Shown here in pieces: positions 2,755 to 61,980 of a DNA stretch of 64,000 nucleotides. Within the stretch, counting starts at the first letter, position 1, and every line of letters starts with the position of its first letter. A program made the position numbers and the translations under genes. The notes beneath the pieces were generated by a model. It ran no database searches. It was not told where the DNA came from and saw nothing but the letters and a program-made list of their open reading frames with translations. The stretch is from Leucoraja ocellata (taxonomy: Eukaryota): assembly GCA_036785375.1 (NCBI GenBank), contig JAWMAR010000201.1:1-64000 (forward strand), read 5' to 3'.

Positions 2755-2809
2755 ATGGATGTTTGGTGCCTGCTCATCTGCTTCTGGCTGTCTCTCCCCA
2801 GCACAATCC
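2755..2809 (+). CDS. SLAM/CD2-like gene A exon 1, signal peptide MDVWCLLICFWLSLPSTI
   Basis: ATG at 2755, hydrophobic 18-codon leader, phase-1 donor C|GTGAGT; paralogous to the gene B leader. Confidence 0.85.
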
Positions 2810-6986: not shown

Positions 6987-7307
6987 CTGGGCCGGAGGCT
7001 CTCCCTCCCACTGTGAACGGAGCACTGGGGCACTCGATCTCCTTATCTCCTGAGATTGCAGGTGGACTGGACATTGGCAAGATTGAGTGGAGGAAAACAT
7101 CGCTCAGAAGCAAAATAATAGAATTCTCAAAGGGGAATATTTCATACTTCGGAATTGAGGAGTACGGGCGACGGATCACTTTTCATCCCAAGAGTTTAAG
7201 TCTGGAAATCCGTGATCTACGGAGAGAGGATGCTGGTGATTATGAGGTGACAGTTATTACACGTTCAGGAACTGAAATTCTGTCAAGAATCCGACTGGAG
7301 GTGTACG
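6987..7307 (+). CDS. SLAM/CD2-like gene A exon 2, IgV domain without the canonical disulfide (GPEALPPTVNGALGHSISL...IEW...SLEIRDLRREDAGDYEV...RLEVY)
   Basis: Acceptor tctcttgtttccttag; 321-nt phase 1-1 open exon; donor G|GTGAGT; V-set motifs (C-strand W, L-x-I-x-x-L-x-x-x-D-x-G-x-Y) with no Cys, typical of CD2/SLAM N-domains. Confidence 0.88.
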
Positions 7308-10390: not shown

Positions 10391-10686
10391 CTGGGAATCA
10401 ACCCGAGCCACAGACTGGCTGGAGCTGGAGGTGGAAATTACCAACATCGGCCAAGTGTTGGTTCCTGGCCTCGCACCTGTACGCAATGTCCCCGACCTCT
10501 GCTGTGTGATGACCCTCTGCCATCACTCCATGTCCACGGGGGTGATGGGTGCTGTCATTTTCCAGAGCTTCTCCTCTCCTCACCACCTGATGCTGGTGGG
10601 GTTGCCGGAGGTCATGCAGCAGGTCAGGGTGAAGTTGCAAATTTCGGCGATGTTCTGAGGCCTGGTCTGTGTTCCTGCCATGGGCT
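10391..10686 (-). pseudogene. Inverted, disrupted SLAM-type IgC2 exon (EPMAGTQ...EICNFTLTC...RW* / frameshift /...HHTAEVGDIAYRCEARN...C)
   Basis: Clear paralog of the C2 exons at 24672 and 44839, with the same acceptor ctgccccaacctcag; in-frame TGA and frameshift after RW; upstream intron homology continues on the - strand to ~11700. Confidence 0.85.
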
Positions 10687-11129
10687 CTGAGGTTGGGGCA
10701 GAGAGAAAAAAGATGAGTAAAGGAGATCTTTATGGACCCCTTGATACCTACAACCCGTCTCCAACAGCGATGAGTGAATGTTAGGCCGATCCCAGCTCAT
10801 TTCCACCCACCAGTTTAACTCATCCATCCACCTTCAGTTCAGCCAGTTGAAAGAAATCCACACGTGTGCTGCGTGCGCCCCCTTCCCGACCACTGCCCCC
10901 CCCCCCACTCATCCACAAACTCTCCACTGTGTCCTGCTTGTGGACCTGTACCCTGGGAATTCTCTCCAGTTCCATGTCTTTAATCATCCTATCATTGGCC
11001 CCGTGTCCCTTATGCACCTGAGCATGACCCAGCCCAGAACTGCCCTGAACCTGCCAACAGCAGCAGCCCTAGGACTGTGATGGGCACAGACCCAGACTGG
11101 GATAGTGTTCATGAGTTCATAGTTCTTTA

Positions 11130-15225: not shown

Positions 15226-15280
15226 ATGGATATCAGGTGCCTGCTCAGCTGCTTCTGGCTGTCTCTCCCCGTCTCAATCC
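15226..15280 (+). CDS. SLAM-like gene B exon 1, signal peptide MDIRCLLSCFWLSLPVSI
   Basis: ATG 15226, 55 nt, phase-1 donor C|GTGAGT, in frame with the V exon at 20913. Confidence 0.85.
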
Positions 15281-19397: not shown

Positions 19398-21343
19398 CGG
19401 TCGATGATGGCACCGACTGACCTATGAGGACAGACACGTGGAAGTGTGGACGTCACTGCCGAGGGAATTAACAAAGAACGACCTGGCATGAGGGGACCTC
19501 CATGAGGGAGGGGGAAGAACAATGGGACCCGGCGTTGGGGGAAAGGGCTTGGCATGAGGGACAGGGCAGAACGATGGATATTGCAGAACCTGCCGTGAGG
19601 GGGGAGAAAAACGGGAACCTGGTGAGGGAGAACTTTGTAACTTTGTAAGCACCTTTTAGTGGCGACTATTTGCATACCTTGGTTGGGCAAGCAAACAATT
19701 TCACTGTGACTCGTCACGTCTGACAATAAAGTGTTCAATTCAATTCAATTCACAATATTCCAAATGTGGCCGGACCAACGCCTTGTAGAGCCTCAGCAGT
19801 CCATCCCTGTTTATGTGTACGACCCCTCATGAAATAAATACTAGCATTGCATTTGAATTCTTTACTGCCGATTCAACTTGCAGATTAACTTTTTGGGAAT
19901 ATTTCACCAGCACTCCAAAGTCCCTTTGCACCTCCGATTTCTGGATTCTCTCCACATTTAGAAAATAGTCTACACCTTAATTACACTATATTCCATCTTC
20001 CACTTCTCTGCCCACTCTCCCTACCTTTCCTAATCCTTCTGCAGAGTCCCAGCTTTCTCTACATTACCGGCCCCTCCACCTATTTTTCACATCCACAAAC
20101 TTGGCCACAAAGCCTTCAATCCCTACATCCAAATCATAGCTGAATGGTAACTGTCACCTCCAGTTGCTGCCAATTTGTTGGCAGCCTTCCAATTACTAGA
20201 GGAGGTGGGTGTTGCTTTATGTTTTCTCTGCCAGATACTTGACCACTCACTGACTTGCTTGGATCCCATAACATTTCTCACATTTGCGCATTGAGTAATA
20301 CATGGAGCAGAATACCTGCTGGCAAGCACATAGGTCAACAGGAGGAACGCATCAATAGCATTACATGGTAGAATGACACCTATGCCTGGCCCATACAGAA
20401 CCAAATATGACAACCTTTCCCTCTGATGACACACGAATGGCTGCGGGCAAAGGGAATGCAACGGGCTGACATGGGGCATCCATGATGCATTCCTGTTTCA
20501 AAGTGAAGCACGCTGTCCATCCACATCCTGAAGGTGTGCAGATTTGTACGTTCATTGGCCTCCGTAAAATTGCTCCTAATGTTCAGGCAGTGGATGGGCA
20601 AGTGAGATTGTATAGAACTCGTGTGAATGACTGATCGATGGACGGCATTAACTCGATGGGCCAAAGGGTCTGTTTCCATGGTGTAAAAAAGTAAAGGGTG
20701 CTTTCAGGAGCCCGTTTACAATCACCAACAGAATATGCACCCTGTTCCCTCCGTGGGCTCACTGATGCAGGGACTGTGGGCTGGGTATCTCACGGAGCCG
20801 GGAGCCAGACGATGGGCCGCATGGCCTGCTCATGTGCTCTGTGATTCTCCCAGCTCCGTTTCCTCCTCCAGTCACTGAGCTCTCCTACTGACTGCCTCTC
20901 TTGTCTCCACAGCTGGGACTGGGGCCGCCGCTGGCACCGTGACCGGAGCTCGGGGACACTCCGTCTCCTTACCTGCTGGGATCACAGTCGCACCGGACAT
21001 TACGGATGTGGTGTGGAAGCGGAAATCGCCCAGATTCAGGATAGCGGTATACGCGAATGAGAAGATGAATTACTTTAACACTAATTACACGGGACGGGTA
21101 ACTCTTCACCGCAGGAACTTCAGTTTGGAAATCCGTGATCTACGGGGAGAGGACGCGGGTGAATATGAGGTGACTTTTGTAATGAGTTCAGGAGATGAAA
21201 CTCACGCAAGAGTCCGACTGGAGGTGTACGGTGAGTGAGACTGCCACAAAGGTCCCGGGTTTCACCAGCTCCTGAACCCATCTAATTAACAGGCGGGGCA
21301 GATCCTGTGCATTCCCCAATTTACTGAACCCCACTGACTGCCA
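19398..21343. repeat. Inverted segmental duplication copy 1 (intron + V exon), partner ~49311-51260
   Basis: ~2 kb colinear reverse-complement match, including shared TE insertions. Confidence 0.92.
20913..21230 (+). CDS. Gene B exon 2, Cys-less IgV domain (GTGAAAGTVTGARGHSVSL...VVWKRK...SLEIRDLRGEDAGEYEV...RLEVY)
   Basis: Acceptor tcttgtctccacag, 318 nt phase 1-1, donor G|GTGAGT. Confidence 0.92.
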
Positions 21344-23980: not shown

Positions 23981-24671
23981 TATAAGATGTATATTATACA
24001 GATCATATTCCTGCTCCAATTAATAAAGTCTTGCCTGCCCAAACTCTCCCTATAGCGTTGGCCCTCACGTCCTGGCCACATTCTTGTAAATCTTCCCTGT
24101 ACTCTTTCCAGCCGAACAGCATCCTTCCTGTAGCAGGGTGACCAAACCTGAACTCCATTAACCATTCGTCAGCTCACCTGCCCAACTAATCAAGATCCTA
24201 CTACAATAGGTGACCCAGGATCTGCACGTGCTGGATTCACTCTGGAACACAGCACGCTACCCAGTCTGGGTCTGTGTCCGTCACAGTCCCAGGGCTGCCA
24301 CTGTTGGCCAGGTTCTGGGCCGGTCTGAGTTGGGTCACACTCGAGTTTTTAAGGAACACTGGGACCACTCACAAATGACAAAAGATATGGAACTGGAGAG
24401 ATTCCCAGGGAACAGAGCCATAAACAGGACACAGTGGAGAGTTTGTGGATGAGTGCGGGTAGTGTTCGGGAAGGGGGCACATCACACGTGTGGATTTCCT
24501 CCAGCAACAACTGGCTGAACTGAATGGGGAGGGAAGAGTTAAACTGGTGGGTGGAAATGAGCTGGAATCGGCTCATTCGTGGGTCGTGGCTGTTGGAGAC
24601 GGGTTATGGGGTATCGAGGGGTTTACAAGTATCTCCTTTACTCATCTTTCTTCTCTCTGCCCCAACCTCAG

Positions 24672-24953
24672 AGCCCGTGGCAGGAACACAGATCAAGGCT
24701 AAGAACATCACTGAGATCTGCAACTTCACCCTGACCTGCTTCGTGACCTCTGGTGGCCCCATCAACTTCACGTGGTGGAGGGAAGCTGTGGGAAACGACA
24801 ACACCCATCACCTCGTGGGACATGAAAAGACAATACAGGTTCATCACACAGCAGAGGTCGGGGACGTTGTGTACAGGTGTGAGGCCACGAACCCGGTCAG
24901 TGAAGGCACGGCACAAATCCGGCTGAAGAACATCTGCAAACAGACCACATCTG
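24672..24953 (+). CDS. Gene B exon 3, SLAM-type IgC2 domain with four Cys (EPV...ICNFTLTC...W...YRCEATNPVS...IC)
   Basis: Acceptor ccaacctcag, 282 nt phase 1-1, donor G|GTGAGT; CxxxLxC...YxCxxxNPVS...C pattern of CD2/SLAM second domains. Confidence 0.92.
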
Positions 24954-25032
24954 GTGAGTGTCAGAGGGCGAATCAGGTTTGAAGAATGTGGTGGTTTAAT
25001 TGTTCATTGAGACAGTGCAGAGGGAGCTTCAC

Positions 25033-28000
25033 GTTTTTTTTTCCCTTCCAAATACTTTATTCAATAATTGCATATTACAGTGTACCAGAAAGTACAAAAA
25101 CGTTCAATAGTCACATTGCATCAGGCAATCATCATAAAACACTAATGGCATCTTTACAATGCATTCATTGTAAAGATGCGGAAGGTCATTGTTCATGGAA
25201 GGCCACCAGAGTCCCCGTGGACACCACATGTTCCCTCTCCTGGGACATGCGAGCACAGACATAGGCCTGGAAAAGGGGCAGGCAGCCGACTTTAGTGTGG
25301 CCATTGACTGGACCTGGAGCAAACCGACAGAGAGATCCTACCCTCCTGATCGACAATCCCCACTCCCTGCCTTGTGCCCAAATACCAGAATCATGGGACT
25401 AAAATGCAACCAGAACCAGAGGAACAGCCCCTTCAGATACTCATACAGGGGCTGCAACCTCTCAAGCTCCATATACACGTGGTACACGGTCTCGTTCTTG
25501 CCACAGAAGTTACAGACAGTTGCCTAGTCTGTGAATCGAATTAAACATTTGTTACACACCACGTCTCTGTGCAACACTCTGCACCCCAGGTCTCCGATGT
25601 AAAGGAGGAGACCTCCACTGGGGACCTCTCCCGCCGTCAGGTGATAACTCAGACCGCCAGGGCGTGTCCGGATGGAAGACGAGGGTGAGGAAATGGTGAG
25701 TGTGCAGGAGCAATCTGCACGGAATGGCACGCTGGGCATCTTGGAAAGGCGGCTCGTGTTGTGTAGGGCCGGCTCCCAGGAAAGATTCCGGGACCTGGTC
25801 TCAATGGGCAATTCTGACAAGTGTGACAAAAGATATGGAACTGGAGAGATTCCCAGGATACAGAGCCATAAACAGGACACAGTGGAGAGTTTGTGGAATA
25901 GTGCGGGCAGTGTTCGGGAAGGGGGCACATGACACGTGTGAACTTCCTCCAGCAACTACTGGCTGAACTGAATGAGGAGGGAAGAGTTAAACTGGTGGGT
26001 GGAAATGAGCTGGGATCGGCTCATTCGTGGGTCGTGGCTGTTGAAGACGAGTTATGGGGTATCGCGGTGGTCAGCTCGGTCGGAATCATTCCGAGCACTC
26101 GCCTCTTCTCAACGCCCACCATGACAGGGTGAGGACTGGCCACCCTCGCAGTTACAACACCCTCCTCCCCCTGAGGAGCAGCACACTGGCTGAAGGTGAC
26201 CAGATTCATAATTCTCAAGGCATCACGGTAGAAACTGTGCAGATTCCATGTGGTGGGTCGACTGATGCCCGCCACCGGGATCTGCAAACCCCCCTCTAGG
26301 CAACGGCCTTGGCGGAAAATATACGTGGTCAGAGTGTGCCATCTTGGAGGATGTTCTGCATACACGTACCTCCGCAGGGTCCTGAGACGGAGGGCCCCCA
26401 CCTGAGTACGCACGCATAGCAAGGATTGGCCACCCTCCTCTAACGGGAGACTCAGGCCCGCTACGGAAACCCAGTGCTTCTTGTCCCCCCAGAGGAAACT
26501 CACTAACCTCTTCTGTATCAAAGGCAGATGGCGGGAGAAGAGTGGCCAGCTGGTACCATAACATGCAGGCCACCAGCACTCTACCTTCAAAGGTCAAGCC
26601 CTCTGAGCAAGACTGACCAGCGTCCCAGCCAGGCGACGACTTTCGTCTCCAACTTCTGCCAGTTTGTTGGCCAAGCATCCTCAGTGGGATTTGGGTAGAT
26701 GCCCAGGTAGAGGAGGTGTGTAGTGCTCAACGCATAAGATGTCATCTCCTCCGGTAGAGAGTCCACCTGCCACTGACTCACCAAAAGTCTGGAACACTTA
26801 CTCCAGTCGATCCTGGTGGAGGATGCGGCCGAGAAAACATGCTGGCACTCGCGTCTCCTCCGCAGGGCAACAGGGTCAGTGAACATAAGGAGCACATCGT
26901 CGGCGTGGGCCGAGAGAACAACCCCCAACTCCCGGTCCTGGCAAAGTCAGGCCTGTCAACCGCATCCGAAGAAGACACATGAACGGCTCCACACACACTG
27001 AGTACAACTGACCAGACATGGGACACCCCTGGCGTACCCCCCTCCCAAAGTGAATGGGTGCCAACAACGAACCATTTAACTTTACGTGGCACTCCGCTGG
27101 GGCGTACAAAAGCCGGACCCGGGCCACAATATGCGGTCCAAATCCAAACGCCTGCAATGTCCCAAAAAGGTAGTGATGATCTACCCTGTCAAATGCCTTC
27201 TCCTGATCAAGGGATAGAGAAGCAACTGACTGACCAGCCCCCTGGGACAATTGGATCAGGTCCCTAACCAGGTAGATGTTTTCTTGAATGGACGAGCCAG
27301 GGACTGTGTAGGACTGGTCCAGGTGGATCAGTCAGGACAGCATGAAACCCAGGCGATTTGCCATTGATGGGGCAAAAACATTATACTCTGTACTGAGGAG
27401 AGAGACCGGGCACCAGTTCTTCAACAGGTGAAGATTACCCTTCTTGGTTAGCAGGACAACGACTGCCTGCACCACAATAGGGGCATCTCCCCGGTCACCA
27501 GGCTCTCCCCTAGGACCTTTGTGTAATCCCCCTTGGACATCCCAGAAGGCTCTAACAAACTCTATGGTCAGCCCATCTAGCCCTGGTGCCTTACCCCTCC
27601 TGTGCAAGGCACCAGTCAACTCCTCCAATGATATTAGGTCATCAAAGAGTTCAACCTCCTCTATAACTTCCGGAGCCGGGCCGCCCTCACGGGAGTGCCT
27701 TCCAGTTTGTACCTGGGGTACAAACCAGAACCGGAAACAACAGCAGTTTGAGCTTAAAAGCGGTCTCGGAGTCTTTTAGACTGACTCTGAGACCGCTTTT
27801 AAGCTCAAACTGCTGTTGTTACTGGTTCTTTTAGAGCAGCAGAAGCAGTTCTCTCCAGCCAAGCAAGGAAAACGCCCACGCTTATCTTCTCTGCTGGGGG
27901 CAGCTTTAGGAGGCTTTTACCAGGTCTTCCGAGCCTCCAGAAACTGCCGGATTCAAAAAGTACCTTCTCTTTGTTTATGCCCAGGCAACCTGGTCTGGGC

Positions 28001-28303
28001 AAAATGGTATGGGAGCAGAGTTATGATGCTCGAAACCACAAACACCGCTTTTGTCCGACTCCCAGTCTCCAGGTACAGTTGGTAATTCACCAGCCACTGC
28101 CGCTCCTACGGAACTCCAGAAAAGCGCTGGAATTCCTCACTAAATGGAGAAATCCTTTGAAAAGAGAAGTCCCTGCAGTCCGACGTTATGTCTAACCTTG
28201 AAATCTCACTATTTCTGTCCCTCTTCCTTCAACGAAAACCTTTCAAGGGTTACTTATAAACTTATCAGCTGTCGGAGCAGTGCCACTCTGTATCCGACCT
28301 TGA
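25033..28303 (-). mobile_element. Tx1-clade (L1 group) LINE insertion, degenerate, with rearranged 5' part
   Basis: Minus-strand AATAAA plus poly-A at 25034-25062; RT motifs GKAPGLDG, SLDQEKAFDRV, GVRQGCP, ADDV; flanked by direct repeat GAGCTTCAC (25024-25032, 28304-28312). Confidence 0.8.
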
Positions 28304-28466
28304 GAGCTTCACTCTGTGTCTATCCATGTTCTGGGAGTGTGTGAATGGACAGCGCTGTCGCAGTTATTTGAAGTCAGTCTACGATGTGGGCCCCAAGTTC
28401 TTGCTGAGTTTGTGAACAAGGCCCAATGCAGTCTCTCTGATGAGTGATCCCCTCTTCTTTCACCAG

Positions 28467-28565
28467 GGTTGAGTAGCTGTCTCCGTGGATGTTGGTTGAG
28501 GGCCACGGTCGCAGCCGTCCTGCTTCTGATTCTCATCTCAGTCACTGTCGCCACCCACATCATCA
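28467..28565 (+). CDS. Gene B exon 4, stalk plus Arg-containing transmembrane helix (GLSSCLRGCWLRATVAAVLLLILISVTVATHII)
   Basis: Acceptor cctcttctttcaccag, 99 nt phase 1-1, donor A|GTGAGT, in frame with exon 3; not listed in the ORF track. Confidence 0.85.
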
Positions 28566-28689
28566 GTGAGTGCTGTTTTTAAGTGTTTGCAGCTAAAATG
28601 TAGAAACAATGAACTGCAGCCATTGTTTAATTCAGAAAAGGTCACAAAGTGCTGGAGTAGCTGCAGCAAGGAACCAGGTTCGCTTGGAC

Positions 28690-29820
28690 CTTCTCCGAAC
28701 TCTCCCTACCGTTTCTGAATATCACCGTCTCCATCACAGGAGACAGACTATTGACCGACATCTACTACTAACCTACTGACTCCCATAGATATCTAGACTA
28801 CACTTCTTCCCACCCTGCTTCCTGTAAAGACTGTCATCAACTCCCAATTCCTTCATCTATGCTGTATCTGCACCCAGGACGAGGCTTTCCATGATCATCG
28901 GAGATGTCCTCATTCTTTAGGAAATGGAATTTCGACTCTTCCATTATAGATGATGCTCCCACTAGGGTCTCCTCGATATCCCGCAGCTCTGCTCTTGCTC
29001 CCCATTCGCAACAAGGAAAGAGTCCCACTTGGCCTCACCTTCCACCCCACCAGCCGTTGCATACAACATATAATCCTTTCACCACCTCCAACGGGATCCC
29101 ACTACTGGCAACATCTTCCCATCTCCACCCCTTTCTGCTTTCTGCAGACACCCTTTCCTCCGTAACTCCCTAGTCAACTCGGCCCTTCCCACTCAAACCA
29201 CCTTCTCCCCAGGTACTTTGACCTGAAACTGCAGGAGATGCAACACCTGTCCCTATACCTCCCCCTTCGACTCCATCCAAGGACCCCAACAGTCTTTTCA
29301 GGTGAGGCAGAGGTTCACTTGCACCTCCTCCAACCTCATCTATGGTATCCGCTGTTCCAGGTATCAACTTCTGTACATCGGTGAGACCAAGCGCAGGCTC
29401 AGCGATCGTTTCGCTGAACACCTCCGTTCAGTTGCCTTAACCTACCTGATCTCCCGGTTGCTCAGCAGTTTAACTCACCCTCCCATTCCTAATCTGACCT
29501 TTCGGTCCTGGGCCTCCTCCATTCTTAGGGTGAGTCCAAGCGCAAATTGGAGGAACAGCACCTCATATTTTGCTTGGGTAGCTTACACCCCAGCGGTATG
29601 AATATTGACATCAAATAGCACTTGCTTTCCCGATCTTTTTATCCCCGCTCCCTTCCCAGTTCTCCCATCTCTTACTGTCTCCGACTACATTCTATCCCTG
29701 TCCCGCCCACTGCCCTGCCAGCAATCTGAAGAAGAGTCTCGACCGGAAACATCACCCATTCCTTCTCTCCAGAGATGCTGCCTGTCCCGCTGAGTTACTC
29801 CAGCATTTTGTGTCTACCTT
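28690..29820 (+). mobile_element. Penelope-like element: RT C-terminus, GIY-YIG endonuclease and 3' pLTR
   Basis: FTCTSSNLIYGIRCSR..LYIGETKRRLSDRFAEH; 3' end ctgaagaagagtctcgaccggaaac...gagttactccagcattttgtgtc. Confidence 0.88.
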
Positions 29821-31460
29821 AGGCTCAAGGATCCGACTAGTAGAACAGAAAAAGGCTCACTCATCTGTTTAGTTACAAATTTGTTTTTTTGGCAAGAGAG
29901 AACAAAAAGAACACTTGTCTCGGTATGCCCAGGGTCCAGTTTTACAGCAGCACACATCTCTCTCTCTCTCTGCCTCCATCTGCGGCGCTGATCGCGTCTC
30001 AGCCCGTCAGAGAACCCCGCTCGTACATGAACTTGAAAATTTCTCATATAACATTCCACCCCTTGAACAATCTGGTTACCGTCACATCCGGCCCACAGGC
30101 TTTACCTCGTCACATCCGGCCCACAGGCTTTAGTAAAGTCCACACGGCCGCACATAGAAGGCTGTAATATTATGGCCAACAAGATTGTCCCAATGGTCAG
30201 TTCCCAGTGCACTACTGTTGTCCACCAGCCTCCAAACATCCCGAAAGGCCACCATCCTCCCGGGAGATTGTAGTCATGGTACTGTTCTCCGACCCTTCCC
30301 CATGGCTTCCAGGATGTGGTCAGCGAGGATGGTGATGTTCTCTTTTACCTCACTCCGTGTCAAACCAGTCACTGAGTCTGTATGACCACGCATGGTATAA
30401 ATTAACCTGTTTTGTCAGAGGTCCCAAACTTTAATGTCATCAATACCATCAGAGATTATCTGATCGCTGTGTCATTAAACGTTGCTGCCAGTACCTGGCA
30501 TGTGTTTTGAAACATATGGATTGCAGCCTTCTTCCGAATGTCCTATAGTTTAATTGTCTCATCATTGCTTCCTGTACAGCCGTTGTGCTGGATAACATGA
30601 ATTCAGAAAGGATGTGTGACCTTTAAGACCCTTGATTCGTTCACCCGTTTCATTATCTCACCTTCACATTGACCACTCCGAGCTCACTGAGTCCACACCG
30701 TCACACTGACCACTCAGCCACAGCGCCATGGGTCACAGACTGTTCAGGGAAATTCTCGTATAACAGTAGCTCAGCAGTTCAGGAAGCATCTCTGGGGAAC
30801 ATGGATAGGCGCGTTTCTGCTCGATATCCTTGATTGTAGGGGCAGGAGAAAAAGGGTGGAAACGGGAATGGCAGGACAAAGCATGGCAGGTAAAAGATTG
30901 ACAAATGCGGGAGAGGGTGGTTGTTGATAGGCAGAGGCCAGAGATAAGAAAGGAAGGTGAGAGACAGGTTTAAGAGCTCCAGATTGTGAAGCCAGATGGG
31001 GATAATTAGTAAGTGGTGACCTAAAATTGGAGAATTTAATATTTATTTTGCTGGGTTTTTTGAGCTATCCACATGGAATACGAGGTGGTCCTCCATTTAG
31101 TGTATGGCCTCACTCTGACAATGGACGAGGCCTAGGACAGAAAAGTAAGTGTGGGAATGGGGAGGGGAGTTAAAACGATAGCAAATGGGAAATATAGTTG
31201 GCATTGGCGGACCAACCGTAACTGTTCATTGAAACAGACAACAAGTCCATGCTTGCCCTGCCCAGTGTACAGGAGGCCATGTTGGGAAAACTGGATGTAG
31301 TAATTGAGGTTAGAGGAGGTGCATGTGAACGTCTTTCTCAGCTGGAAGGAACGCTAGGGTCACTGGATAGAGGCGAGGGTGAAGGTAAACGGACAGGTGT
31401 TTCATCTCATGTGGACTCTCGTAGGGTGCACTGACTTCTCTCCTATCTCTCTCCCCACAG

Positions 31461-31510
31461 GCGCCCGCCCTGTCAGTGGAACTGCAGACAGGCCTCACAA
31501 GACTGAATGA
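31461..31510 (+). CDS. Gene B exon 5, short tyrosine-free cytoplasmic tail SARPVSGTADRPHKTE*
   Basis: Strong acceptor tcctatctctctccccacag, phase-1 continuation, TGA at 31508-31510; total CDS 804 nt = 267 aa. Confidence 0.7.
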
Positions 31511-32443
31511 CTTCCCCTCACCTCTTTCCTTCTCCACATCTGCTTTTCCACCTCCCTCTGCCACTGCTCCTCACTCACTTCCCTTCCTCTCCTCTTCCCC
31601 ATTTTCTCTTTCCTGTCCCTCTCCTTCCCGGCACTCCTCCCCGTACTTCCCCTCTCGCACTCCCTACTCTACAAAGGGAAGTCAGCAGTAAGGTCGGGAG
31701 GGTGAGAAGAGTTATGGCAGCCAGGGGTGGGGAGGGTGAGGGACGGATAGGGAGGAGAGATAGAGAGAAGTGACAAAGGATAAGAGGAAATGAAGGTAGA
31801 GGGTTCGGGTGGGAGGGAGTGGGTGGGTGGGTGGGCAGAGGTCTCAGGAATAAGAAGGGAGATGGAGGGGTTAGAAGGAAGATGGTTGGCATGGGGAAGG
31901 ACAGATGAATGAGGGAGGATCATAGGGACAGAGAGTGGGGGAAGGGCAGAGCAGAAGGAGGTCTGGAGGTGTAAAGAGTAGAGTGAGGATGGCTGGGTGG
32001 GGCTGTGGATTGGGTGAGCATGGGAATGGAGGCTGCCTGATGGGGAGAGAGGAAGAGAATGTTGATTGGGAATGGCAGGTGACAGAGTGATCAGGGGTCC
32101 GGAAGCCGTGAGGAGGTCGAAGGACTGAGGTTGGAGTGAGAGAGAGTCTGGGAAGGAGAAGAGGGTTTGAGGAGGTGAGGTGTTGTAACTGCGAGTCGAG
32201 CAGGTGAGACCGGGAAGGGAGAGCGCCGTGGACACAGAATCAGAAGAGAGCCTGTGCCCAACCAATGATCCCAAGAAACAGCGGACAGTTCCTGGAACCA
32301 AAGGCGGCTGCAAAGGTTTCCACTTGTGTTTGTTCTGTGATGAAATTGCCAGTTTGTCTGTAATGACCGGACATCCCCTCCTCCCCTCCTTCCTCCCCAT
32401 TTCCTTCACTCTCCCCCTCCCCCCCTCCCCCTTCCCACCTGTA

Positions 32444-41004: not shown

Positions 41005-41127
41005 TCATGGCTCACAGTGCTGGGACTTTCCAGGGGCGTCCGGTGATCCAATGCCTGAGGTCCCAGGAAGGTTGATAGTATCATACACGGAGGCAATGAT
41101 CCCCATTCTCTCCTCCTCACTCTGAAC
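41005..41127 (-). CDS. Gene C exon 6, distal cytoplasmic tail with ITIM-like SVYDTI and stop
   Basis: Acceptor ctctgctttctctacag, phase 0, VQSEEERMGIIASVYDTINLPG...HCEP*. Confidence 0.82.
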   Translation of the reverse strand, partial: VQSEEERMGIIASVYDTINLPGTSGIGSPDAPGKSQHCEP

Positions 41128-41521: not shown

Positions 41522-41610
41522 CGTTTTGTTTCCCTCCGGAGGCTGCTGTTTGTCAGGACGTCTCTGTGGTTGCTCGACCTGAGCGTAGACAGTCTCCGTG
41601 GGCCCTGGGT
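41522..41610 (-). CDS. Gene C exon 5, cytoplasmic segment with ITSM TVYAQV
   Basis: Acceptor ctctctctctgccccacag, 89 nt phase 1-0, donor ACG|GTAACG; DPGPTETVYAQVEQPQRR... Confidence 0.85.
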
Positions 41611-42156: not shown

Positions 42157-42279
42157 CTGCTGGCCCGTCCCTTGTTGAATAGCGTTTGAAGAAAATCACA
42201 ATGGCAAAGACCACAATGGCAACTGCCACAATGACAAGGACCGATATCAATGGAATTATCCATGCTCTATTCCCTGGAT
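42157..42279 (-). CDS. Gene C exon 4, neutral transmembrane helix (DPGNRAWIIPLISVLVIVAVAIVVFAIVIFFKRYSTRDGPA)
   Basis: Acceptor ttttctcctctccag, 123 nt phase 1-1, non-canonical GC donor CAG|GCAAGT; KR stop-transfer. Confidence 0.85.
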
Positions 42280-44557: not shown

Positions 44558-44839
44558 CAGATGTGGTCTGTTTACAGATATCCCTCAGCCGGATCTGTGC
44601 TGTGCCCTCACTAACCGGGTTCGTGGTGTCACACCTGTACACAACGTCCCCGACCTCTGCTGTGTGATGAACCTGTATTGTCTTTCCATGTCCCTCGAGG
44701 TGATGGGTGTTGTCGTTTCCCGAAGCTTCCTTCCACCACGTGAAGTTGATGGGGCCACCAGAGGTCACGAAGCAGGTCAGGGTGAAGTTGCAGATCTCGG
44801 TGGTGTTCTCAGCCTTGATCTGTGTTCCTGCCACGGGCT
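44558..44839 (-). CDS. Gene C exon 3, SLAM-type IgC2 domain
   Basis: 282 nt phase 1-1 exon with canonical splice sites; 10 aa differences from the gene B C2 exon. Confidence 0.92.
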
Positions 44840-45974
44840 CTGAAGTTGGGGCAGAGGGAAGAAAGATGAGTAAAGGAGATCCTTGTAAACCCCTCGATAC
44901 CCAACAACCCGTCTCCAACAGCGATGAGTGAATGTTAGGCTGATCCCAGCTCATTTCCACCCACCAGTTTATCTATTCCCTCCCCCTTCAGTTCAGACAG
45001 TTGTTGTTGGAGGAAGTCCACACATGCTGCGCCCCCTTCCCGACCACTGCCCGCACTCATCCACAAACTCTCCACTGTGTCCTGTTTACAGCCAAGAGTC
45101 AAAAGTGTGATATTATCATATGCCCCATATAGAACAATGAAATTCTTACATTCAGGAGCACAACAGAATATGTAAACATAGTAATCTGTAAATAATATAA
45201 TAAACATGAAAAATTTGCAGTTCGCATATTGTAATGGGTTGAGGTTCTTGTTGAGGTAGGAGTTGATATGCACCGTAACCAATCTCTCAAAGCACTTCAT
45301 CACCACGGATGTTAGTGCCACAGATCGATAGTCATTGAGGCATATTGCCTTACTCTTTTGGAAGAGTATGTCGCCTTACTAGAATTTTTATTATTGATGC
45401 CCTCTTAAAGCAGGTGGGAACTTCAGACTTCAGTAATGAGAGGTTGAAGATGTCTATAAAATCTCCAGTCTGCACAGGTTTCATGGCTCTGTATGTTGGG
45501 AATTCTCCTCAGTTCCATGTATTTTGTCACTCCTGTGAGTGAGTGGTCCCCATGTCTCTTTCACACCTGATGGACATTTTTAACGTATTGATCGGTATGG
45601 GCAGAGGGGACTGAGAGAAACGACCCCCAGTGGGGGGAAGACAAGAAACAGAGACAGGAGGAGTGGGATCGTGGATTAGAGATTCAGGATAAGGGGCTGT
45701 CCTTGTCAGATGGAGAAATTGAGAAATTCCTTCTCTCTGAGGGTTGGAAATCAGTGGAATTCTCCCTTGGAGAGCTGTGGAGGCCAAGTCGGTAAAAGTA
45801 TTTAAGGCCAAGACAGATAGAACTTTGTTCTGGAGGGAAGGCGGGAATGTGTACAATGGATTCAGATTCCGAATCTGATTCCGAACAAAGAGGGATCCGG
45901 CATGGGGGGGTGGGTGAGTGTGGGGGCCCCAAGAGCAACGAGGGACCATCAGGACTATATTGATAACGTATAAC

Positions 45975-47230
45975 ATCCTCCATGCTGCACTGTCTCACCT
46001 GGAGCAGCGGGGGAGCTACGTGCGGATGCTCTTTGTGGACTACAGCTCTGCTTTTAATACCATCCTTCCCCACAAACTGGTGGACAAACTGGGGGACTTG
46101 GGACTTCCACACTCCACCTGTACGTGGATAAATAGCTTCCTGTCGGGTCGCAGCCAGAGAGTCAGAGTGGGCCATCACACATCCACGGCCCTCAGCCTCA
46201 GTACCGGCTCTCCACAGGGCTGCGTACTGAGCCCCCTGCTCTACACCATCTACACACATGACTGCGCCCCCGCCCACCACAGCAACACCATTGTCAAATT
46301 TGCGGATGACACTACAGTGGTGGGACTCATCTCCGGGGGGGACGAGTATGCCTACCGGGATGAGGTGGAGCAGCTGACAGTGTGGTGCGAAGAAAATAAC
46401 CTGCTCCTCAACACCTCAAAGACAAAGGAAGTAATAATAGACTTCAGGAAGAACAAAACGGACATGGTACCACTGACTATCAGAGGGGACTGTGTAGAGA
46501 GGGTGGCGGATTTCCGCTTCCTGGGAATCCATATTGAGGAGGACCTGACGTGGAGCGTGAACACCACTGCGCTGCTGAAAAAGGTCCAGCAGAGACTGCA
46601 CTTCCTGAGGGTGCTCAGGAAGAACAACATCACTCAGAGACTGCTGCTGTCCTTTTATCGGTGCTCCATTGAGAGCATACTAACATACTGTGTATGCGTG
46701 TGGTACACCAGCTGCACAGCGGCTCAGAGGAAAGCGCTCCAGAGGGCCATTGACAATGCCCAGAGGATTGTCGGCTGCCCTCTCCTTACCTTGGAGGACT
46801 TACACAGTTCCCGCTGCACCAAAAAAACCCAGAATATAATAAAGGACATTTCCCACCCCGGACACTCCCTGTTTGAACTGTTGCCGTCAGGCAGACGGTA
46901 CAGATCCACAAGGACAAGGACAAATAGACTAAAAAACTGTTTTTACCCCACTGCTATAAAAGCACTAAATGTAGCCACCAAGGAACGGAGGGGCGACACA
47001 GACTAAGGGACTGTGGTAACTGTGAAATCGACAGAAGGATGGAGGGTTGGGTGTGTATGCTTGCTTTGTCCGTGATATTTATTTATTTGTTTATCTTTAT
47101 TATTTTACCGTGGATGTAGCGTTAGCTTTAGAAATGTTTGAATGCTGCACTGACTGGCTGACATTTTAAATTTCGTTGTACATGGCCCATGTTACAATGA
47201 CAATAAATAAACTATTCTATTCTATTCTAT
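45975..47230 (+). mobile_element. Rex1/Babar-type LINE, 5'-truncated, with uninterrupted RT C-terminal ORF (to 47006)
   Basis: MLFVDYSSAFNTI, GSPQGCVLSPLLY, KFADDTT, SGRRYRS..TRTNRLKN; AATAAA plus (CTATT)n tail; lies in gene C intron 2. Confidence 0.9.
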
Positions 47231-49310: not shown

Positions 49311-51260
49311 CTGGCAGTCAGTGGGGTTCAGTAAACTGGGGAATGCACAGAGTCTGTCCTCACCCATTAATTAGACGGGTTGAGCAGCCAGTGAAACACG
49401 GGACCTCTGTGGCAGTCTCACTCACCGTACACCTCCAGTCGGACTCTTGCTAGAGTTTCATCTCCTGAACTCATTACAAAAGTCACCTCATATTCACCCG
49501 CGTCCTCTCCCCGTAGATCACGGATTTCCAAACTGAAGTTCCTGCGGTGAAGAGTTACCCGTGCCGTGTAACTGGTGTTAAAGTAATTCATCTTCTCATT
49601 CGAGTATACCGCTATCCTGAATCTGGGCGATTTCCGCTTCCACGCCACTTCCGTAATGTCCGGTGTGACTGTGATCCCAGCAGGTAAGGAGACCGAGTGT
49701 CCCCGAGCTCCGGTCATGGTGTCAGCGGCGGCCCAAGTCCCAGCTGTGGAGGCAAGAGAGGCAGTCAGTAGGACAGCTCAGTGACTGGAGGAGGAATCGG
49801 AACTGGGAGAATCACAGAGCACAGGAGCAGGCCATGCGGCCCATCGTCTGGCTCCCGGCTCCGTGAGATACCCAGCCCACAGTCCCTGCATCAGTGAGCC
49901 CACGGAGGGAACAGGGTGCAGATTCTGTTGGTGATTGTAAACGGGCTCCTGAAAGCACCCTTCACTTTTTTACAGCAAGGAAACAGACCCTTTGGCCCAA
50001 CGAGTTCATGCCGTCCATCGATCAGTCATTCACACGAGTTCTATAAAATCTCACTTGCTCATCCACTCCCCGAACATTAGGAGCAATTTTACAGAGGCCA
50101 ATGAACGTACAAATCTGCACACCTTCAGGATGTGGAAGGACAATGCGCTTCACTTTGAAACATGAATGCATCATGGATGCCCCATGTCAGCCCGTTGCAT
50201 TCCCTTTGCCCGCAGCCATTCTTGTGTCATCAGAGGGAAAGGTTGTCATATTTGGTTCTGTATGGGCCAGGCATAGGTGTCATTCTGCCATGTAATGTTA
50301 TTGATGCGTTCCTCCTGTTGACCTATGAAAGATGTGCTTGGCAGCAGGTATTCTGCTCCATGTATTCCTCAATGCGTAAATGTGAGAAATGTTATGGGAT
50401 CCAAGCAAGTCAGTGAGTGGTCAAGTATCTGGCAGAGAAAACATAAAGCAACACCCACCTCCTCTAGTAATTGGAAGGCTGCCAACAAACTGGCAGCAAC
50501 TGGGGGTGACAGTTACCATTCAGCTATGATTTGGATGTAGGGATTGAAGGCTTTGTGGCCAAGTTTGTGGATGTGAAAAATAGGTGGAGGGGCCGGTAAT
50601 GTAGAGAAAGCTGGGATTCTGCAGAAGGATTAGGAAAGGTAGGGAGAGCGGGCAGAGAAGTGGAAGATGGAATATAGTGTAATTAAGGTGTAGACTATTT
50701 TCTAAATGTGGAGAGAATCCAAAAATCGGAGGTGCAAAGGGACTTTGGAGTGCTGGTGCAATATTCCCAAAAAGTTAATCTGCAAGTTGAATCGGCAGTA
50801 AAGAATTCGAATGCAATGCTGGTATTTATTTCATGAGGGGTCGTACACATAAACAGGGATGGACTGCTGAGGCTCAACAAGGCGTTGGTCCGGTCACATT
50901 TGGAATATTGTGAATTGAATTGAACACTTTATTGTCAGACGTGACGAGTCACAGTGAAATTGTTTGCTTGCCCATCCAAGGTATGCAAATAGTTGCCACT
51001 AAAAGGTGCTTACAAAGTTACAAAGTACTCCCTCACCAGGTCCCCGTTTTTCTCCCCCCTCACGGCAGGTTCTGCAATATCCATTGTTCTGCCCTGTCCC
51101 TCATGCCAAGCCCTTTCCCCCCACGCCGGGTCCCATTGTTCTTCCCCCTCCCTCATGGAGGTCCCCTCATGCCAGGTCATTCTTTGTTAATTCCCTCGGC
51201 AGTGGCGTCCACACTTCCGCGTGTCTGTCCTCATAGGTCAGTCGGTGCCATCATCGACCG
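49311..51260. repeat. Inverted segmental duplication copy 2 (partner 19398-21343)
   Basis: Reverse-complement match. Confidence 0.92.
49426..49743 (-). CDS. Gene C exon 2, Cys-less IgV domain
   Basis: 318 nt phase 1-1 exon, acceptor cctccacag, donor G|GTGAGT; 10 aa differences from the gene B V exon. Confidence 0.92.
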
Positions 51261-53387: not shown

Positions 53388-53454
53388 CCAAACATCTGGC
53401 AAAAAGGTAGGCACAGAACAGGCAGACAACACTTCTTGAGGAGAGCCCCCACAT
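53388..53454 (-). CDS. Gene C exon 1, putative signal peptide MWGLSSRSVVCLFCAYLFARCL
   Basis: ATG in aagATGt context, 67 nt, phase-1 donor G|GTAATG in frame with the V exon; ETS/PU.1 motifs immediately upstream; total CDS 1002 nt = 333 aa. Confidence 0.7.
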
Positions 53455-57339: not shown

Positions 57340-60300
57340 GAAATCACTGTCTCCTCTTCTCTGTTCTTTCCTGCACATCTCATCTCTCCCACTTTCCTCT
57401 GGACTCTGTAGAACCACCGTCCTTTCCGCTCTTCCTCCCATTGCTTTTGCCATCTTTCCTTCAGTCTTTGCTTAATAATGTCTTTAATTTCAGTTTAACT
57501 ATGTTAATACTTAAATCAATCTTACTTCTTTTTGTTACCTCTTTTGCTACCTTATCTGTCATTTCGTTTCCTCTAATGTCAATGTGTGCTGGTACCCATA
57601 AAAATATGACTGTAAGCCCCATCATTTGAATTCTGAATAGTGTTTGGTGTATTTCTATCAAAATGTCTGGTCTATTGTCTGAATGACTGTGCTGTAAACT
57701 CTTTATTGCTAAACTTGAATCTGAACAAATAACTGTCCTTAAAGGCCTAGTATCCTCGACCCACTGTACCGCTAACAATATTGCAATCATTTCACCTGTG
57801 TATATTGAGATCTCATTATTGATCCTCTTCCCTACTTTGATGTGAAATTCTGGTACAATAAATGCTACTCCTACTTTATCTACTGAATCTTTTGATGCAT
57901 CTGTATAAATTTGGACAAAACTGTAGTATCTGTCAATATATTCCTGTATGATGACTGAATTATACATATGCTGTTTATCCTTGTTTTTCTGTTCTAATAT
58001 TGTAAAGTCTACTGTTGCATCTGGAAGTATCCAAGGTGGAATTGAAGGTAATGGAACCGTTGGAACCACATTTAATTGGGCTATGCTAATTTGTATTGCT
58101 CTCTGGGTCACTGTCCATCCAAAACTTTTTGTTTACCTTCTCTCCTTTTCCCAGCATGGTTTGACAGTAACTTGTACTGGGTGTTCTTGACTGTGGCCCT
58201 GTAGGTTAATCCAGTAATTCAATGAAAGCTGTATCCTTCTCATCTCTAGAGGCATCTCCCCCATTTCAACCTGTAATGCTGCTGTTGGAGTTGTTTTTAT
58301 TGCACCTGTACATATTCTCAATGCCTGGTATTGAATGTTGTCTATTTTCTTAAGAGAAGTACTTGATGCGAACCCATACACCACACAACCATAATCTAAC
58401 ACAGATCTAATTAACCCAGTGTATATAGCCTTCAAAGCTGTTCTATCTGCCCCCCAATCACATCCAACTAAACATCTCATTACATTAAGTATCTTCTTAC
58501 ATTTGTCCACTACTTTCTGAATTTTAAAAGCTTTATTTCGACACTTAATTGCATCCATGCAATCCTCTCATCAAACCATAAACCTAAAAATTTATAGTAT
58601 TTTACTCTCTCCAATTCCTGGTTATATAATTTTAGTTTTACCTCACTATCAATTTTCTTCCTAGTAAAAAACATTATCTTTGTCTTTTCCACAGAAAATT
58701 TGAATCCCCATTTATATGACCACTCTTGTACTTTTATTATAGCCCTCTGTAGTTTCTGCACAATAAACTTCACATTTCTCCCCCTTTTCCAGATTGCCCC
58801 ATCATCCGCAAACAGTGAAACTCCCATTTCATTTACAATTTCTTCATATACATCATTTATCATTACTAAAAATAGTAAAGGACTTATTATGCTCCCTTGA
58901 GGTGTTCCATTTTCAATATGTAATATTCCTGAGTATTGATTTCCAACTCATACTTGTATTGACCTCCCAAATAAAAAATCCTTAATCCATTTAAATATAC
59001 GACCTTTAATCCCCAATTTACCTAGTTTCACTAATAACCCTTCTCCCCACATCATATCATATGCTTTCTCAATATCAAAAAATACAGCTACTACACTTTC
59101 TCTGTTAATTTGTGCTCTCCTAATTTCATGTTCTAAACATATAGCTGGATCCATGGTGTTTCTCCCCTTCCTGAAACCACTCTGGTAAATGGATAAATAT
59201 CCTTTATTTTCTACATAATATGTTAACCTTTCATTTACCATTTTTTCCATTACTTTACATATGGTGGATGTTAACGCAATAGGCCTATAATTCCCTGGGT
59301 TTGTCAGATCTTTACCTGGTTTTCCTATTGGGAGTACTACTGCCTCCTTCCAGCTTTGCGGTAATTTCCCACCCTCCCACATTTTATTATAAAATTCTAA
59401 CAAAAAATCCTTGGATGTTTCACTGAGATGGTTTAACATGGTGTAACAAATCTGATCTTTACCTGGTGCTGACATCTTGGTTTTTCTAAGAGCTCGATTG
59501 AATTCTGTCTTTGTGAATGGTTTGTTAAAAACATCGTTAGTGTCTTCCTCATATCGCATTAACTGTATATTCCCTGCTATAGTATTTTCTTTTCCTTTTC
59601 TTCCTTCTTCACTAACATTGTCTGAACTGTGAATTTTAGCAAAAGATTTTGCCAACATCTCTGCTTTCTCTTCATCTTTCACTGCTGTAATTTCAACGTC
59701 AGTTAGGATTGGATATTTGTATTCTTTTTTAATTCCTTTCATTCTCCTTATCATTCCCCAAACTTGACCTACTTTTGTCTCCCTTCCCACTGAGTTACAA
59801 AATGTCCTCCAAAATTCCCTCTTTGCATTTTTTATTACTCTTCTTACACTTGCTTGCAACCTTTTGTATTCAATAAGATTCTGAAAATTGTGATTTCTTT
59901 TCAAAATTTTAAAAGCTTTATTTCAACACTTAATTGCTTTGTCACACTCCTTAGTCCACCATGGTACACTCTTCTTGTTGTGCTTACCTCCTTTCTTTTT
60001 AATGGACTTCGTTGCTGACTCTAAAATGGCTTCACAAACAGAAATATTTAAATTATCCACATCTTCATAAATATCAATTTTCTCCATTTCTTGATCACTA
60101 ACAATCTTAAACTTCTCCCAATCAGCACCACTAAAAGACCACTTCTGTATTCTCTCTGTATTATACTCCTCTAAACTCACTCCTGCTACTATTTCTATCG
60201 GGTAGTGGCCACTTCCTACCGTTGTTCTTCGAATTACTTCCCATGAACAAACACCCGCCAATGAGTCTGACACTAGTGTGAGGTCTATGGCTGATTCTGA

Positions 60301-61980
60301 CCCTGTTCTGATGTTGATTCTTGTCCCACTTCCATCATTAAGACACACAAGGTTTTTATTCTCCATTAAATCCTCAATCACCATCCCATTTTCATCATTA
60401 GAATCATCCCACAACGTGCTATGGGCATTAAAATCTCCTCAACATATAACTTTCCCCCCTAAATATCCAGCAAGTTCATCCATCAACTCCATTGAAAGCC
60501 TTTTACACGGATTATAAAAATTAACAATTTTAACCTTAGCTTCTCTTGTCCAAATTTCAACCACTAAATGTTTTAATTCTGTTCCTTTCACCAACAATCT
60601 ATAATGTATTCCTTGCCTTATAAATATTACACACCCCCCTCCACTCCCCTACCCCCCCCCCCCCCCCATCTCTACAGATACTATCATAACCTTTGATGAC
60701 AAAGTCTAATGAAAGCTTAAGCCAGGTTTCTTGAATACATACGACTTCTGGTTTCTTCTTTAACGAATCCTTTAAACTCTTGTCCATTTGCTATTAGGCT
60801 CCTTGCGTTCCATTGTAATATAATCAATTTGACCTATCACCAGAACCTTCCTGCCTTCCATCTGCTTCAAGCTTTTTATTGATACTCTCCCATGATACTT
60901 CTTTTAAACCCAAAAACTTCTCTGCTCCCTTAACAATGATTTTTTTTCTTCTGTTTTGTGTTTAACCTGATCAGTACAGTTGATTACATATGCAATGAAA
61001 ACAATAAGCTTATCAGCTGTCAGTTCTGTGTGAGTTTTGACTGCTTGACTTTCCTCTAATCTCAAAACCGGATGATTCTCTCGCCCAATTATATCCACTC
61101 TTCCCCTTTGTTCTTGCACCTTCTTCACTGCCTCTGAGTAGCTTATGTTACTTACTGTTTTCACTTGCTGAATCTCCACAGCCCTCTTCCTGACTTCACA
61201 TCCCCCATACGTTACCCTGTGTGGTCCTCCGCAATTGCAGCATTTATCCTGCATATTTTCTCTGCACTCTTCAAATCTATGCTCTCCTCCACACTTGGGA
61301 CACCTCTGCTTCCCCTTACACACTGCTGCTATATGTCCATACCTCTGGCATTTATAACATCGGAGCGGTGGAGGGATATAAGGCCTCACTGGAAAACTCA
61401 TGCATCCGATTCTCACTTTTTCTGGTAGTTCAGACTGCTGAAACTCCAGAAGCACAGACAAGCTCTCTACCCTCTTACCCTCCACTGTCCTTAACAATCT
61501 CTTAGCTACACTCACCTGGCCACCAAAAATACTCCGTTTGAGTTTCTCCAGGTCTTCATCTACAGGAATATCTGTTATTACTCCCCTTGTCACTCTACTC
61601 TCACCCAGAGTCTTTCTTTCACTCACCATCTTCTTGCAAACACTTTCAATCTTCAGAGCCTTATTTTTCTGCTCCTCCATCTTACATATTATTAACAAGT
61701 TCCCGTCTCTCAAAATCTTAGCTGTTTCCACCTCTCCTACCTTCTTCTTTAGCTCCCTGGATAAAGCTATCGGACTTAAATTGACATGCTCATCTTCCTT
61801 TCTGAATTTCAGTATTATTTTAACCTCCTTCCTTTCAACCTTTTTCCGAACCGTTCTCCTATCCTCCTCTGAACTGTTCCCTTCAAAATTCCTTTTGCTG
61901 CTTTGGCTGAGCTCGTTTTGCCTGACTCCTCCTTCTCCTTGATTCCTTCCTGATCTCTGACTAGATAGCTGATTTCCTCA
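57340..61980 (-). mobile_element. Near full-length I-group (Nimb/Ingi-like) LINE: ORF1 gag with 3 CCHC knuckles; ORF2 APE-RT-RNase H, frameshifted
   Basis: CYKCQRYGH..C, CPKCGGEH..C, CCNCGGPH..C; ILQWNARS, CIQETW, SAIDLT; SAPGKD, DIEKAYD, SLFADD; IYTDASK, SDS, WVPAH. Confidence 0.9.

Follow-up and report, generated by a model that had tools for sequence, protein, structure and literature searches.

A SLAM-like receptor gene of Leucoraja ocellata with a conserved Arg/Lys transmembrane exon and an ITSM-bearing neighbour

The SLAM-like genes of the window

The window, the whole 64,000-nucleotide stretch of a Leucoraja ocellata contig that was analysed, holds two intact SLAM-like genes that face each other: gene B on the plus strand and gene C on the minus strand (Table 1). 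Joining the five predicted exons of gene B yields an intact open reading frame of 804 nt (267 aa), in which every junction is GT-AG and in phase 1. The fourth exon encodes the stalk and the transmembrane (TM) segment. It measures 99 nt, with AG/GT borders and phase 1-1, and lies 3.5 kb 3' of the C2 exon and 2.9 kb 5' of the terminal exon. The acceptor before 28467 is pyrimidine-rich (ttctttcaccag) and the donor after 28565 reads TCA/GTGAGT. Translated in phase 1, from 28469, the exon gives LSSCLRGCWLRATVAAVLLLILISVTVATHII; the frame starting at 28467, as its coordinates imply, contains stops and is not the coding frame. Encoded within it are Cys (28478-80 and 28490-92), Arg (28499-501) and His (28556-58). 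In a scan of the window, this was the sole plus-strand hydrophobic exon that could be spliced between the C2 exon of gene B and gene C. The terminal exon completes a cytoplasmic tail of 16 aa, with no Tyr and no signalling motif.

Table 1. Predicted exons of genes B and C and the tract that they have in common. Positions are those of the window.
Feature	Position	Strand	Basis or remark
Gene B leader exon, predicted	15226..15280	+	joined ORF
Gene B V-set exon without Cys, CD2/SLAM type	20913..21230	+	Pfam V-set E 1e-10, Receptor_2B4 E 0.003
Gene B C2-type Ig exon, 4 Cys	24672..24953	+	domain match and joined ORF
Gene B stalk and TM exon, motif C-x2-R-x18-H-I-I-S	28467..28565	+	splice scan and alignment
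Gene B terminal exon: Tyr-free cytoplasmic tail ending R-x-H-K-x-E, stop	31461..31510	+	P0022 tail identical 15/15
Gene C leader exon	53388..53454	-	joined ORF
Gene C V exon	49426..49743	-	90% aa identity to gene B V
Gene C C2 exon	44558..44839	-	89% aa identity to gene B C2
Gene C uncharged TM exon, GC-AG donor	42157..42279	-	no blastn match to gene B TM exon
Gene C cytoplasmic exon, ITSM TVYAQV	41522..41610	-	translation
Gene C last exon, SVYDTI motif and stop	41005..41127	-	translation
Tract common to B and C, V exon and upstream intron	19398..21343 vs 51260-49312	+, inverted	95.6% over 1954 bp

We regard the TM exon of gene B as confirmed at the sequence level; its fusion to the SLAM-like ectodomain is predicted from the gene structure and from homologous gene models. 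Four raw RNA runs, read across 24640-31800, were uninformative either way, the depth in the C2 exon bin being 0-0.67 and repeat reads being dominant. Among the 15 exon joints listed for these runs (587 more were recorded) none belonged to gene B, at a coverage too low to tell.

The ectodomain is of the CD2/SLAM type, as the first-pass annotation had proposed. The V exon encodes no Cys and hence lacks the B-F disulfide, as expected of a CD2/SLAM V domain, and the C2 domain has the four Cys typical of the family, at positions 16, 22, 69 and 88. The Pfam matches (Table 1) and fold matches bear this out. Sequence matches in the PDB include SLAMF5, CD2 and CD48, with pIgR ranking above them through its repeated domains. 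As a structural stand-in we used the AlphaFold model of the homologue P0022, which is 73% (V) and 87% (C2) identical to gene B: in a Foldseek search of this model, ranks 1-7 and 10 were CD2, NTB-A, a CD48/CD2 chimera and CD58. A profile search also favoured CD2/SLAM folds for P0022, yet CEA and CEACAM1 ranked high too. The same model has a single helix across residues 221-256. The database proteins nearest to the window genes are skate proteins (against Amblyraja radiata, 84% for the V domain of gene B and 97% for that of gene A, described below). The ITSM (TxYxxV/I) of SLAM receptors proper is missing from gene B, and is carried by its neighbour gene C as TVYAQV. Gene B is thus a predicted type I CD2/SLAM receptor, composed of leader, V, C2, TM and a Tyr-free tail of 16 aa.

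Parts of another SLAM-like gene, gene A, lie upstream of gene B. An intact leader (2755-2809, plus strand) and an intact V exon (6989-7307, plus strand) are present, the latter 89% identical to the Rhinoraja protein P0019, an R/K-type (Arg/Lys) receptor. The only C2 exon nearby (10687-10410, minus strand) is inverted, truncated at the 3' end and disrupted by a stop and a frameshift, and it is not followed by a TM exon. In an A. radiata model, P0002, the V domain of gene A is linked to V and C2 of gene B; gene A may thus be a remnant, or else supply an alternative front end to the membrane module of gene B. A stretch of the intron ahead of the gene B C2 exon recurs, without the exon itself, at 25824-26067 (plus strand), as a copy of 244 bp with 94% identity. 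Three retroelement-like segments were labelled by eye from their translations: an open frame with an RT-like product of 362 aa (45918-47003, plus strand), a LINE-like element (57464-61977, minus strand) whose ORF1-like and endonuclease/RT/RNase H-like frames are interrupted by stops and a decayed RT inside an intron of gene B (26024-27775, minus strand).

The transmembrane module in sharks and rays

Of the 97 elasmobranch proteins obtained in two homologue searches, 79 have a hydrophobic window of TM strength. A gapless motif, C-x2-[RK]-x18-H-[IV]-I-S, occurs in 14 of these 79 SLAM-like proteins; the 14 come from nine species and join the module to a SLAM-like ectodomain as database gene models, not as experiments. 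The basic residue is Arg in all nine motif proteins from six skate and ray species and Lys in all five from three shark species. Besides this residue, the gapless alignment has invariant Cys at -3, Leu at +8 and +11, His at +19, Ile at +21 and Ser at +22. An Arg at the outer end of the helix and a His near its inner end had been noticed at first pass, and both observations extend to the homologues, where the basic residue and the His are each found in 14/14; within the best TM windows of the SLAM-like set, His occurs only in these 14 proteins. Two stalk Cys (CLRGC) had been noticed as well. They are present in gene B, but represent a derived state: CLRGC is a variant of CLCGC, the three-Cys form found in seven of the nine batoid proteins, and the sole invariant stalk Cys is the one three residues before the basic residue (14/14).

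Batoid and shark TM segments align with a mean score of 62, whereas alignment to any window of 65 other receptors scores 10 +/- 8 on average and 32 at best. Because 62 is far above these values, we consider the shark and ray TM exons homologous; being common to both groups, the exon therefore predates the shark-batoid split, which took place roughly 250-300 million years ago. When gene B is aligned with its sawfish, stingray and manta homologues, the TM exon agrees at 75%, V at 49-55% and C2 at 60-70%, which makes the TM exon better conserved than the Ig domains. Six of the seven invariant positions fall inside a helical arc of 100 degrees. A permutation test for a conserved face, based on the helical conservation moment, was not significant, with p 0.10-0.15 when Arg and Cys were included and 0.4-0.5 without them.

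The cytoplasmic tails differ between the two groups. All nine batoid tails are 16 aa long, contain no Tyr and have invariant P, R, H, K and E residues. Three shark models have tails of 43 residues, and two long tails carry one Tyr (VYELD), outside any ITSM or ITAM; two other shark models, P0072 and P0075, end 3-6 residues past the helix. The tail end R-x-H-K-x-E, invariant in 9/9 batoids, has a Lys at -3 as COPI retrieval signals do. We take this as no more than a lead, since HKxx is not among the proven variants given in PMC5798408 and sharks do not have it. In three gene models (P0037, P0039 and P0088) the TM exon is left out and C2 runs directly into the tail, and P0092 skips C2; these models suggest that soluble and short forms are made.

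Two further groups of ray proteins turned up in the homologue set. P0047, P0073, P0093, P0050, P0051 and P0096, SLAM-like proteins of stingray and manta, are free of Tyr motifs and have an Arg well inside the helix, preceded by several hydrophobic residues (LIIRLIV, LLIRAVL, LVIRLFV); in P0050 and P0051 this Arg looks as if it had replaced the Gly of the uncharged VIGLSV type. By sequence, these inner-Arg receptors match the L-I-R geometry of CD89 better than gene B does, and suggest repeated origins of adaptor-type SLAM receptors in rays. P0001, P0003-P0009, P0068 and P0069 have tandem V domains, are in some cases named Ly9-like, lack an ITSM and carry Cys-Cys where the TM ends on its inner side.

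Ectodomain sharing between genes B and C

Gene C encodes 333 aa, with an uncharged TM and two Tyr motifs, TVYAQV and SVYDTI. The donor of its TM exon, at 42157 on the minus strand, appears to be a non-canonical GC-AG donor; the Logan protein P0018 also spans this junction. Genes B and C are nearly identical over their V exons and the intron upstream (Table 1), and match at 88.4% over 612 bp around C2; pS is 0.03 in the V tract versus 0.11 in C2. A blastn comparison of the two TM exons gave no match. The common tract is likely the product of gene conversion or of a recent exchange.

The same arrangement recurs in other species. We examined 12 R/K proteins, 11 with an ITSM paralogue in the same species and one without. 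The same-species ITSM paralogue was nearer than the R/K receptors of other species in 10 of the 11 for V and in 7 of the 11 for C2. In three rays, V sides with the ITSM paralogue (87-94%) and C2 with the R/K orthologues (88-94%), a split affinity that points to exchange of the V exon. On trees that leave out P0027 and P0082, and in which the 'neutral' label took in the inner-Arg receptors P0047 and P0073, the R/K label changes 11 times for V and 9 times for C2, the V count being no lower than with shuffled labels. Sparse sampling of species, or recent duplication combined with shuffling of exons, might produce much the same result; in any of these cases the receptors have ectodomains in common and keep their membrane modules.

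As in paired receptors, gene B combines an ectodomain near-identical to that of an ITSM-bearing partner with a short tail without Tyr motifs. The same pattern of V sharing is seen in CEACAM and Siglec pairs (PMC2832619). CEACAM1/CEACAM3 and Siglec-5/14 resemble genes B and C in having a V domain homogenised with that of the ITIM/ITSM partner, distinct membrane and tail modules and an inverted orientation (PMC2832619); they differ in that gene B belongs to another family and in that a signalling route for its short form is here a proposed one. V sharing is described for GPI-linked and soluble CEACAM decoys too (PMC2832619), so pairing by itself is no proof of activation. The pairing pattern is nonetheless the best evidence that gene B is the counterpart of gene C, and appears to be a stronger signal than the Arg.

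Proposed adaptor coupling and its alternatives

Our preferred explanation, which we hold tentatively and would stop just short of calling probable, is that gene B is the activating half of a pair with gene C, signalling through an ITAM adaptor of the zeta/FcR-gamma type. It builds on the gene structure, the family, the old and conserved TM module, the lack of a signalling motif in gene B itself and the repeated sharing of V with ITSM paralogues. Both receptors would see the same ligand or pathogen mimic. The V domain of gene B stays close to that of gene C, while its TM has a separate descent. In the helix, the face with Cys, Arg and His would pack against the adaptor, the stalk cysteines could make inter-chain disulfides and the TM-skipped forms may act as soluble decoys. 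A precedent exists in Xenopus, where CD2/SLAM members have NxxR TMs (PMC4536121, PMC6557307).

The first-pass annotation had gone further and read the exon as an FcR-gamma-type Arg TM. A conserved basic residue at the outer helix end does stand. The LRC receptors coupled to FcR-gamma (FcalphaRI/CD89, GPVI, LILRA, NKp46, OSCAR) likewise have a short tail, and an Arg near the N-terminus of the helix that the Arg of gene B may match, depending on its depth, but their TM type combines NxxR with a DYT motif and acidic residues at its C-end (PMC6557307, PMC2413239). The Asn of NxxR is found in none of the 14 motif proteins, Cys filling its position in all 14, and neither the DYT motif nor the acidic C-end occurs in any of them. 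In CD89, the Arg is at TM position 3, within QNLIR (PMC1440944, PMC13107469), and Arg-to-Lys replacement strongly reduces assembly with Fc-gamma (PMC1440944); Lys is what all five shark motif proteins carry. Whereas CD89 needs its Arg, the depth of the Arg in gene B is ambiguous, sharks use Lys, and the ectodomain is from a different family.

Several observations bear on this depth. Two positions ahead of the basic residue, the 14 motif proteins have W, R, L, T or P, so that this stretch is probably interfacial. The basic residue is followed by 22-23 uncharged residues in 12 of the 14 proteins and by 29 in the other two; since 22-23 such residues can span the membrane alone, the basic residue may lie at the interface. 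Its depth runs from -2 to +3 depending on helix placement, and from -2 to +2 by a rough insertion score. If the His is taken as the inner boundary, the helix would begin W-L-R and place the Arg at position 2-3, like that at position 3 of CD89. As a control, 28 of the 65 other SLAM-like TMs have Arg or Lys as the first charge within four positions of their best window; edge basic residues are thus common in such TMs and the Arg by itself proves little.

The adaptor can be considered as well. A 2014 survey reported FcR-gamma as absent from cartilaginous fish (PMC4016189), and a search of the literature, with a term search of the elephant-shark supplement of PMC3964593, found in the text available nothing on shark FcR-gamma beyond this negative. 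Since FcR-gamma is reported missing there, the adaptor of gene B may be zeta-like, and we consider a zeta-type partner as plausible as FcR-gamma. On its sequence, the gene B TM fits the FcR-gamma type only loosely. The further claim that gene B signals through an ITAM adaptor fares better in part: an activating role is backed by the pairing pattern and the Tyr-free tail, but specificity for FcR-gamma is weakened.

We think it unlikely, although it deserves serious weight, that gene B is instead a non-signalling TM decoy or an adhesion ligand, comparable to the TM form of CD58 or to SLAMF9. The V domain of gene C would then be shared to compete for, or to present, a ligand; the Arg/Lys would be an interfacial anchor, with Cys and His serving self-association or trafficking. 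The Arg/Lys swap between rays and sharks, the edge basic residues in other SLAM-like TMs, the complete uncharged span behind the basic residue and the TM-skipped models all agree with such a role. Moreover, short-tailed SLAMF9 may just be a ligand (PMC7078004), and shared ectodomains are also known in GPI-linked or soluble CEACAMs (PMC2832619). A passive anchor, however, is not expected to exceed the Ig domains in conservation, nor does it account for an invariant intramembrane His found, among SLAM-like TM windows, only in the 14 motif proteins.

Less probable still is that the exon encodes a GPI-attachment signal as in CD48, that is, small residues, a spacer reaching to the Arg/Lys, and a cleaved-off segment of moderate hydrophobicity. 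The omega site of such signals is a small residue 9-10 residues ahead of the hydrophobic segment, and an invariant Ser does stand nine residues before it here. A polybasic stop-transfer is lacking, with 2.1 basic residues in the first 10 versus 3.8 in other members, the Arg/Lys swap is tolerated, and P0072 and P0075 stop soon after the helix. Against this, the hydrophobic segment is not at the extreme C-terminus in batoids or in three shark models: the former have a separate tail exon with five residues invariant in 9/9, the latter the 43-residue tails. No small-residue triplet is common to all proteins, +2 being L in batoids and P in sharks, and a cleaved signal should not surpass the Ig domains in conservation. 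CD48 itself is a GPI-anchored SLAM member (PMC6963180).

Recruitment of the exon from another activating family, of the LRC/FCRL NxxR type, had also been proposed at first pass, and now looks very doubtful. What speaks for it is the Arg near the outer end together with the short tail, as well as the occurrence of NxxR TMs across the LRC, FCRL and SLAM families of Xenopus (PMC4536121, PMC6557307). The gene B TM lacks the NxxR hallmarks, the exon was already common to sharks and batoids, and the searches for a donor turned up none; as they are insensitive for a hydrophobic query of 32-55 residues, a very old recruitment could have escaped them. With the TM and tail region as query, nothing but SLAM-like proteins of skates came up (2 of 13 candidates). 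A profile run against 1.84 billion representatives, which missed even the shark orthologues, gave three matches: one family member and two repeat-rich proteins, P0125 and P0126, whose summed weak matches we discarded as repeat noise. The PDB search for a donor gave 0 matches, the Pfam search nothing relevant and the atlas search just an unnamed cluster below 0.9. Neither the TM exon nor the tail exon is repeated elsewhere in the 64-kb window. Finally, the decayed SLAM pieces nearby (10410-10687 and 25824-26067) might hint that gene B is silent or that its TM exon is not spliced to this ectodomain, which is highly improbable given the intact 804-nt frame with its canonical phase-1 junctions and the 14 annotated homologues (gene models) from nine species with the same TM on a SLAM-like ectodomain.

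With regard to gene B as the proposed activating partner of gene C, earlier work has described an adaptor-type TM in SLAM-like receptors of Xenopus (PMC4536121). The Xenopus CD2/SLAM and FCRL NxxR members (PMC4536121 and PMC6557307, both citing Guselnikov 2011) are alike in having a SLAM ectodomain, a short tail and an outer basic residue within an expanded family. In contrast, the skate TM has CxxR, or CxxK in sharks, in place of NxxR, no DYT and no acidic C-end, and adds an invariant inner His and a Cys-rich stalk. Mammalian SLAMF8/SLAMF9 and CD48 are also CD2/SLAM V-C2 receptors without ITSM; SLAMF9 has a Lys/Arg-rich tail (PMC7078004) and CD48 a GPI anchor (PMC6963180), whereas the gene B tail has few basic residues. 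Our search of the open-licence literature, with subscription papers outside its scope, found no description of elasmobranch SLAM TMs or of SLAM pairing in this group.

Altogether, the gene B TM is less specific for FcR-gamma than first held, but it is older and sits within a clearer paired system. A wider possibility, to which we give rather low credence, is that a non-NxxR module couples the R/K receptors to an ITAM adaptor through its inner His and outer basic residue, in a paired SLAM system kept since before the shark-ray split, with V continually rewritten from the ITSM partner. Mammalian SLAMs signal via ITSMs and SAP and are not known to have adaptor-coupled twins. Were gene B a decoy or a GPI-linked ligand, it would be an ordinary CD48/CD58/SLAMF9-like member. 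The NK-like activating receptors of cartilaginous fish and their adaptors are poorly defined, and the natural Arg/Lys series, together with the invariant His, offers a test of the rule that Fc-gamma/zeta dimers need Arg. Pairing conserved across elasmobranchs would move pathogen-driven SLAM receptor pairing back to cartilaginous fish. If the wider possibility holds true, activating/ITSM SLAM pairing would be as old as the deepest split among jawed vertebrates, at least two or three TM solutions would have arisen, and the pairing would have been lost in mammals.
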